Source of the DNA: Escherichia coli
Lineage (GTDB): Bacteria; Pseudomonadota; Gammaproteobacteria; Enterobacterales; Enterobacteriaceae
Direction: 5' to 3' (one strand)
Assembly (NCBI RefSeq): GCF_003334815.1
Contig: NZ_QOWO01000048.1
Length of the DNA: 25,066 bases
The position numbers and the translations under genes are program-made. Below, piece by piece: positions 24,909-25,066 of this stretch (its first letter is position 1; each line of letters opens with the position of its first letter). Below the pieces are notes generated by a model that was not told where the DNA came from, did no database searches, and saw only the letters and a list, made by a program, of their open reading frames with translations.

Positions 24909-24959
24909 TCTATAAGTTAGACGGAAAAGACTATATTTAAGATGTTTTGCCTGAAAAGT

Positions 24960-25027
24960 GAGCGAACGATAAAGTTTTTATATTTTTCGCTTGTCAGGCC
25001 GGAATAACTCCCTATAATGCGCCACCA
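24960..25027 (+). promoter_or_regulatory. rRNA operon P1 promoter (rrnG by synteny) with A/T-rich UP element
   Basis: TTGTCA (24991-24996), 16-bp spacer, TATAAT (25013-25018), GC-rich discriminator GCGCCACC, predicted start at A25027; A/T-rich segment 24960-24990 upstream. Sequence is the canonical rrn P1 TTGTCAGGCCGGAATAACTCCCTATAATGCGCCACCACTG. Confidence 0.85.
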
Positions 25028-25066
25028 CTGACACGGAACAACGGCAAACACGCCGCCGGGTCAGCG

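Follow-up and report, generated by a model that had tools for sequence, protein, structure and literature searches.

The rrnG control region and promoter P1 downstream of clpB at the right end of a 25-kb Escherichia coli sequence

The window, by which we mean the whole stretch of 25,066 nucleotides of E. coli DNA that was analysed (contig NZ_QOWO01000048.1 of assembly GCF_003334815.1), begins in an insertion sequence and ends in the control region of a ribosomal RNA operon. Bases 1-77 are an exact IS5 terminus; its inverted repeat (TTCGCACCTTCC) runs up to base 77, and the CTAG target occupies 78-81. The same 77 bases recur in an annotated IS5 copy of a K-12 genome and match at 11-12 places in K-12 strains. 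The element interrupts a gene encoding an integrase domain (78-336, minus strand) that is located beside ssrA, where an island that has integrated at the tmRNA gene has its edge; only the N-terminal part of the integrase (about 86 codons) lies inside the window. In a related genome (L009) the integrase gene is uninterrupted (1566-2759, minus strand) and window base 78 corresponds to position 2501. IS5 was found at this junction in none of the 5426 complete E. coli genomes (140-nt junction query, at least 80% coverage), and therefore the insertion appears to be specific to the source strain or its lineage. Two other RNA features of the window match the annotation in related genomes: the full-length tmRNA gene ssrA (520-882, minus strand, 296 bits) and the Phe leader with the pheL attenuator (18752-18877, minus strand, 132 bits).

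The gene that precedes the ribosomal control region is clpB (22302-24875, plus strand, stop codon TAA at 24873-24875), the unique upstream neighbour that marks the operon as rrnG. Its coordinates were taken from the RefSeq annotation of genomes with 100% identity to the window end and moved by an offset (4903-7476 in strain 720632, hereafter L001; window coordinate = L001 + 17399). Many complete E. coli chromosomes match the last 667 nt of the window at 100% identity, and clpB is the feature annotated there. The list of open reading frames gives clpB a slightly earlier start (22290-24875, plus strand, 861 aa) than the RefSeq start in the identical genomes (window-equivalent 22302, 857 aa), and the annotation of K-12 also includes an internal-start product, ClpB80. 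A match to the sRNA RyfD (Rfam, 125 bits, 22183-22321, plus strand) immediately precedes the start of clpB and extends across it, as is also the case in the K-12 annotation.

Behind the stop codon, RNA folding revealed an intrinsic terminator (24881-24908, plus strand), with the stem CGAGCCC (24885-24891), a TTCG loop, the arm GGGCTCG (24896-24902) and a run of five T residues (TTTTT, 24903-24907). The preceding A-tract (24881-24884) would be able to lengthen the stem. The fold has a free energy of -20.3 kcal/mol versus -6.8 +/- 2.4 kcal/mol in shuffled sequences (z -5.7), and none of 200 shuffles was equally stable. A simple terminator scan did not report this terminator, although direct folding gives a strong hairpin and a T-run. 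The miss is an artefact of the scanner, probably because the extended A:U stem takes up the T-run.

Between the terminator and the core promoter lies a zone with the features of an upstream activating region. The A+T content of 24967-24987 (plus strand, -60 to -40, CGATAAAGTTTTTATATTTTT) is 86%, versus 50% in the whole window, which points to an UP element. The agreement with the UP consensus is partial (8-10 of the 15 specified positions at any offset), and the promoter-proximal half is T-rich and not A-rich. Functional UP elements were reportedly found at all seven P1 promoters by Hirvonen et al. in 2001. Our call of an UP element rests on position, composition and published work and not on a match to the consensus, the position being that at which the UP element of rrnB P1 is defined (-60 to -40; bioRxiv 10.1101/2020.06.05.136721). 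The preliminary description of this sequence had placed the UP element immediately after the clpB terminator; an A/T-rich zone is indeed present, but some 58 nt (24909-24966, 67% A+T) intervene.

This gap was found to carry Fis-like sites, a feature that is an addition to what had been described. The first (GCCTGAAAAGTGAGC, 24949-24963) is centred at -71, which we take to be the centre of Fis site I of rrnB P1 as well, and sits opposite GGTTGAATGTTGCGC of rrnB in an ungapped alignment. The second (GTCTATAAGTTAGAC, 24908-24922) is a near-palindrome centred at -112 and a candidate upstream Fis site, in which G1/C15, Y-4, R-3, Y+3 and R+4 are all satisfied and the A/T core is matched at 4 of 5 positions. 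Both 15-mers agree with the degenerate Fis pattern at all of the positions that were checked. It was shown before that an rrnG promoter fragment is bound by Fis, for which three sites had been proposed in earlier work, that cooperative binding gives rise to more than six Fis-bound complexes in gel shifts, and that rrnG has the second-strongest promoter of the seven operons (PMC4696680).

The core of P1 follows on the same strand, with the -35 hexamer TTGTCA (24991-24996, identical in K-12 rrnA, rrnB, rrnC and rrnG), a spacer of 16 nt (24997-25012), the -10 hexamer TATAAT (25013-25018) and the G+C-rich discriminator GCGCCACC (25019-25026, -8 to -1, 12% A+T). All of these were read directly from the sequence, and the two hexamers were also found in a scan for the sigma-70 consensus and in the comparison with K-12. 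The hexamers, their spacing and the discriminator had all been described beforehand, and each lies at the place stated, exact to the base. An A is present at 25027, the position that had been put forward as the start of transcription; identity with rrnB P1 points to the same base, 9 nt past the -10 hexamer, as the probable start, in which case the P1 leader is represented in the window by its first 40 nt (25027-25066). The locus therefore carries what characterizes an rrn P1: both hexamers at a 16-bp spacing, a G+C-rich discriminator and, for the putative start, the 9-nt distance.

What lies beyond the window end was read in two relatives that are 100% identical to it (L001 and L009) and in K-12. 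In L001 the second promoter, P2 (TTGACT-N16-TATTAT), is located at 7710-7737, equivalent to 25109-25136 of the window, a boxA-like sequence (TGCTCTTTAACAA) at 7775-7787, and the start of the 16S gene at 7919 (window-equivalent 25318, 252 nt past the window end). The -35 hexamers of P1 and P2 are 118 bp apart, in agreement with the published spacing of about 120 bp (PMC4696680). The 16S gene is followed by tRNA-Glu, 23S and 5S genes (all confirmed with Rfam in L001) and then by kgtP. An Rfam match to StyR-44 (105 bits) lies outside the window, in the 16S-23S spacer just 5' of the 23S gene (L001 9785-9884). The preliminary description had located the window end in the P1-P2 interval, and had named the absence of P2 and a 16S gene further to the right as the finding that should overturn it. 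In the identical genomes the end falls 43 nt before the -35 hexamer of P2, and both P2 and the 16S gene are present. The order P2, 16S, tRNA-Glu spacer, 23S, 5S and kgtP, as found in L001, L009 and K-12, would by extension also be that of the source strain.

To what extent this order holds for the species was determined with an 801-nt query that joins the unique 3' end of clpB to P1, P2 and the 5' end of the 16S gene. A contiguous clpB-P1-P2-16S arrangement was found in 5371 of the 5426 complete E. coli genomes. The median number of places per genome was seven for this query, which reaches into the 16S gene, and four for a query consisting of the 158 nt at the window end, the latter because the P1 core is common to rrnA, rrnB, rrnC and rrnG. 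The genomes identical to the window likewise have four places for the P1 core.

The alternative that survives best is that a genuine rrn P1 heads a rearranged or hybrid operon here, the body or downstream flank of which was derived from another rrn locus by recombination between rrn operons or by inversion. The window ends within sequence common to four operons and its own data are silent on what follows, and 55 of the 5426 genomes lack a contiguous clpB-P1-P2-16S place at 80% or more of query coverage. Moreover, at 25063 (+37) the window has an A (GGGTCAGCG) where K-12 rrnG has a G, and this A is the state of K-12 rrnA, rrnB and rrnC, which suggests exchange or variation between copies. The same A, however, occurs in many other E. 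coli rrnG copies and is common in genomes with normal synteny; it would fit variation among rrn leaders or gene conversion between them. Of the complete genomes, 99% have the canonical junction. Three genomes were inspected in detail, two of which match the window end at every base, and each shows the complete rrnG organization, with kgtP next wherever the flank was retrieved. We consider a rearranged operon very unlikely.

That the promoter is the P1 of rrnG is evident from a comparison with the regions 5' of the 16S genes of K-12. The comparison covered all seven genes, with the -10 region as the anchor. The -10 pattern used gave no anchor in rrnD, which was therefore omitted, leaving five other operons besides rrnG. 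In the 125 nt 5' of the -35 hexamer the window matches K-12 rrnG at 125 of 125 positions, rrnA, rrnB and rrnC at 44-58 and rrnE and rrnH at 41-44. In the core (-35 to +1) the numbers are 37 of 37 for rrnG as well as for rrnA, rrnB and rrnC, and 26-27 of 37 for rrnE and rrnH. In the leader (+2 to +40) they are 38 of 39 for rrnG, 39 of 39 for rrnA, rrnB and rrnC, and 14 of 39 for rrnE and rrnH. The stretch from -37 to +40, which is the same in K-12 rrnA, rrnB, rrnC and rrnG, would by itself allow the promoter to be that of rrnA, rrnB or rrnC and the rrnG label to be wrong, but this assignment is refuted by the 125 nt upstream (125/125 for rrnG versus 44-58/125 for the other three) and by the upstream gene, which is clpB and not hemG, murI or yieP, the neighbours of rrnA, rrnB and rrnC, respectively; we regard it as extremely improbable. 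In the annotation of K-12 MG1655, clpB adjoins rrsG-gltW-rrlG-rrfG, after which kgtP follows, and this bears out the earlier identification of the operon as rrnG on the basis of synteny with clpB. The region is specific to rrnG both in having clpB directly upstream and in its sequence from the terminator to the -35 hexamer. The assignment to rrnG P1 is secure because of the identity of the upstream 125 nt, the neighbouring clpB and the contiguous clpB-P1-P2-16S arrangement in relatives.

The idea that the hexamers are a chance sigma-70-like match without promoter function, which draws on the rate of about 2.7 promoter-like matches per 3 kb that shuffled sequence yields in consensus scans, can be given practically no credence and was already refuted by identity with characterized promoters, as P1 scores 11 of 12 (the only match that good in the last 3 kb) and its hexamer pattern occurs exactly once in the whole 25-kb window, versus 0.09 occurrences expected even with one mismatch allowed, while 77 nt are the same as in the experimentally studied rrnB P1, the region is kept at 95% or more identity in almost all of the 5426 genomes, and the distances to P2 and 16S are correct. 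Base-for-base identity with known promoters is, in our view, better evidence for P1 than such statistics. Two other candidates in this part of the window were dismissed. On the minus strand, a sequence resembling a promoter (TTTTCA-N16-TATAGT, 24957-24930) matches at 9 of 12 positions, a level reached at an equal rate in shuffled sequence, and is regarded as chance. A GTG-initiated open reading frame of 44 codons that runs across the promoter on the minus strand (24917-25051) is absent from the annotation of K-12 and of two genomes annotated with PGAP.

The ends of the window have a common property that had not been described before, namely a signature of repeated sequence of length k=77. At the right end, the longest exact suffix shared with each of K-12 rrnA, rrnB and rrnC, which served as proxies for the other operons of the source strain, is 77 bases (24990-25066), and one base further to the left the sequences differ (G versus T). 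Of the rrnG control region, exactly this terminal 77-mer is common to rrnA, rrnB and rrnC, and it presumably represents the repeat node at which the assembly broke. At the left end the IS5 terminus has the same length. In SPAdes, 77 is a default largest k. With precisely 77 nt of repeated sequence at either end, the window most probably represents an entire short-read contig from a de Bruijn graph with k=77, flanked by a copy of IS5 to the left and by an rrn repeat to the right. It breaks off 40 nt into the P1 transcript because rrnA, rrnB and rrnC repeat the sequence from -37 onwards, and most likely the sequence ends here since a short-read assembler was unable to pass the repeated rRNA operon. 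The general remark made previously that rRNA operons can be assembly breakpoints is hereby supported: at the window end the stretch shared with rrnA, rrnB and rrnC is cut off after exactly 77 nt, just as the window starts with 77 nt of IS5.

Taken together, we are highly confident that the region is the control region and P1 promoter of E. coli rrnG (rrsG-gltW-rrlG-rrfG), located after the clpB terminator, working by a mechanism like that of rrnB P1 and most probably ending at a k=77 repeat break. The mechanism has been established for the rrnB P1 core and is applied to rrnG by sequence identity. In this scheme, the hairpin terminator of clpB would insulate P1 from read-through. RNA polymerase holoenzyme with sigma-70 would bind the near-consensus -35 hexamer TTGTCA and the consensus -10 hexamer TATAAT across a suboptimal spacer of 16 bp, and the A+T-rich UP element (-60 to -40) is the expected target of the C-terminal domains of the alpha subunits. 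Such binding of alpha-CTD to the UP element of rrnB P1 increases transcription more than 30-fold (bioRxiv 10.1101/2020.06.05.136721); the contact with the UP zone of rrnG is predicted by analogy. Further activation would come from Fis at sites with centres near -71 and farther upstream, the putative sites at -71 and -112 being its likely targets here. The G+C-rich discriminator of 8 bp and the start 9 nt past the -10 hexamer would together lead to a short-lived open complex, the instability of which should favour promoter escape. Because the open complex would be short-lived, the output would track the concentration of the initiating ATP and be shut down by ppGpp/DksA. For rrnB P1 the roles of the UP element, the discriminator and the 9-nt start and the control by iNTP, ppGpp and DksA have been described (bioRxiv 10.1101/2020.06.05.136721).

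The rrnG P1 found here is already known and represents ordinary biology; the earlier observation is confirmed and its interpretation supported. As rrn P1 promoters are among the most thoroughly studied bacterial promoters, nothing is added biologically. The use of the analysis is practical: it allows the correct annotation of the intergenic region between clpB and rrsG and explains the end of the sequence, one k-mer (77 nt) into a control region common to four rrn operons, in the same way as the left end in IS5. For the scaffolding of this genome, rrnG and kgtP are to be expected on the right and an IS5 element on the left.

The closest known counterpart is P1 with its upstream activating region in K-12 rrnG, which is the same at 201 of 202 positions (-160 to +40), the base at 25063 being the sole difference, and which has the same neighbouring clpB and the same terminator. 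The resemblance to rrnB P1, the reference ribosomal promoter for studies on the UP element, Fis, iNTP and ppGpp/DksA, is confined to a smaller part. The two are the same from -37 to +40, including the hexamers, the 16-bp spacer, GCGCCACC and the 9-nt start spacing, and both have a Fis-like site centred at -71. The UP/Fis region, however, differs, with matches at 35 of 60 positions when -95 to -36 is aligned without gaps: the proximal half of the UP zone is T-rich in rrnG and reads AAATTT in rrnB, and the second Fis-like site of the window has its centre at -112, whereas we take the second Fis site of rrnB to be centred at -102. The P1 promoters of rrnE and rrnH form a second sequence class of P1 cores. 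They share with the window the TATAAT preceded by CTCCC and the GCGCC at the start of the discriminator, but differ in the -35 hexamer (TTGCGG, TTGTCT) and the spacer, in the discriminator as a whole (GCGCCTCC) and in having an unrelated leader.
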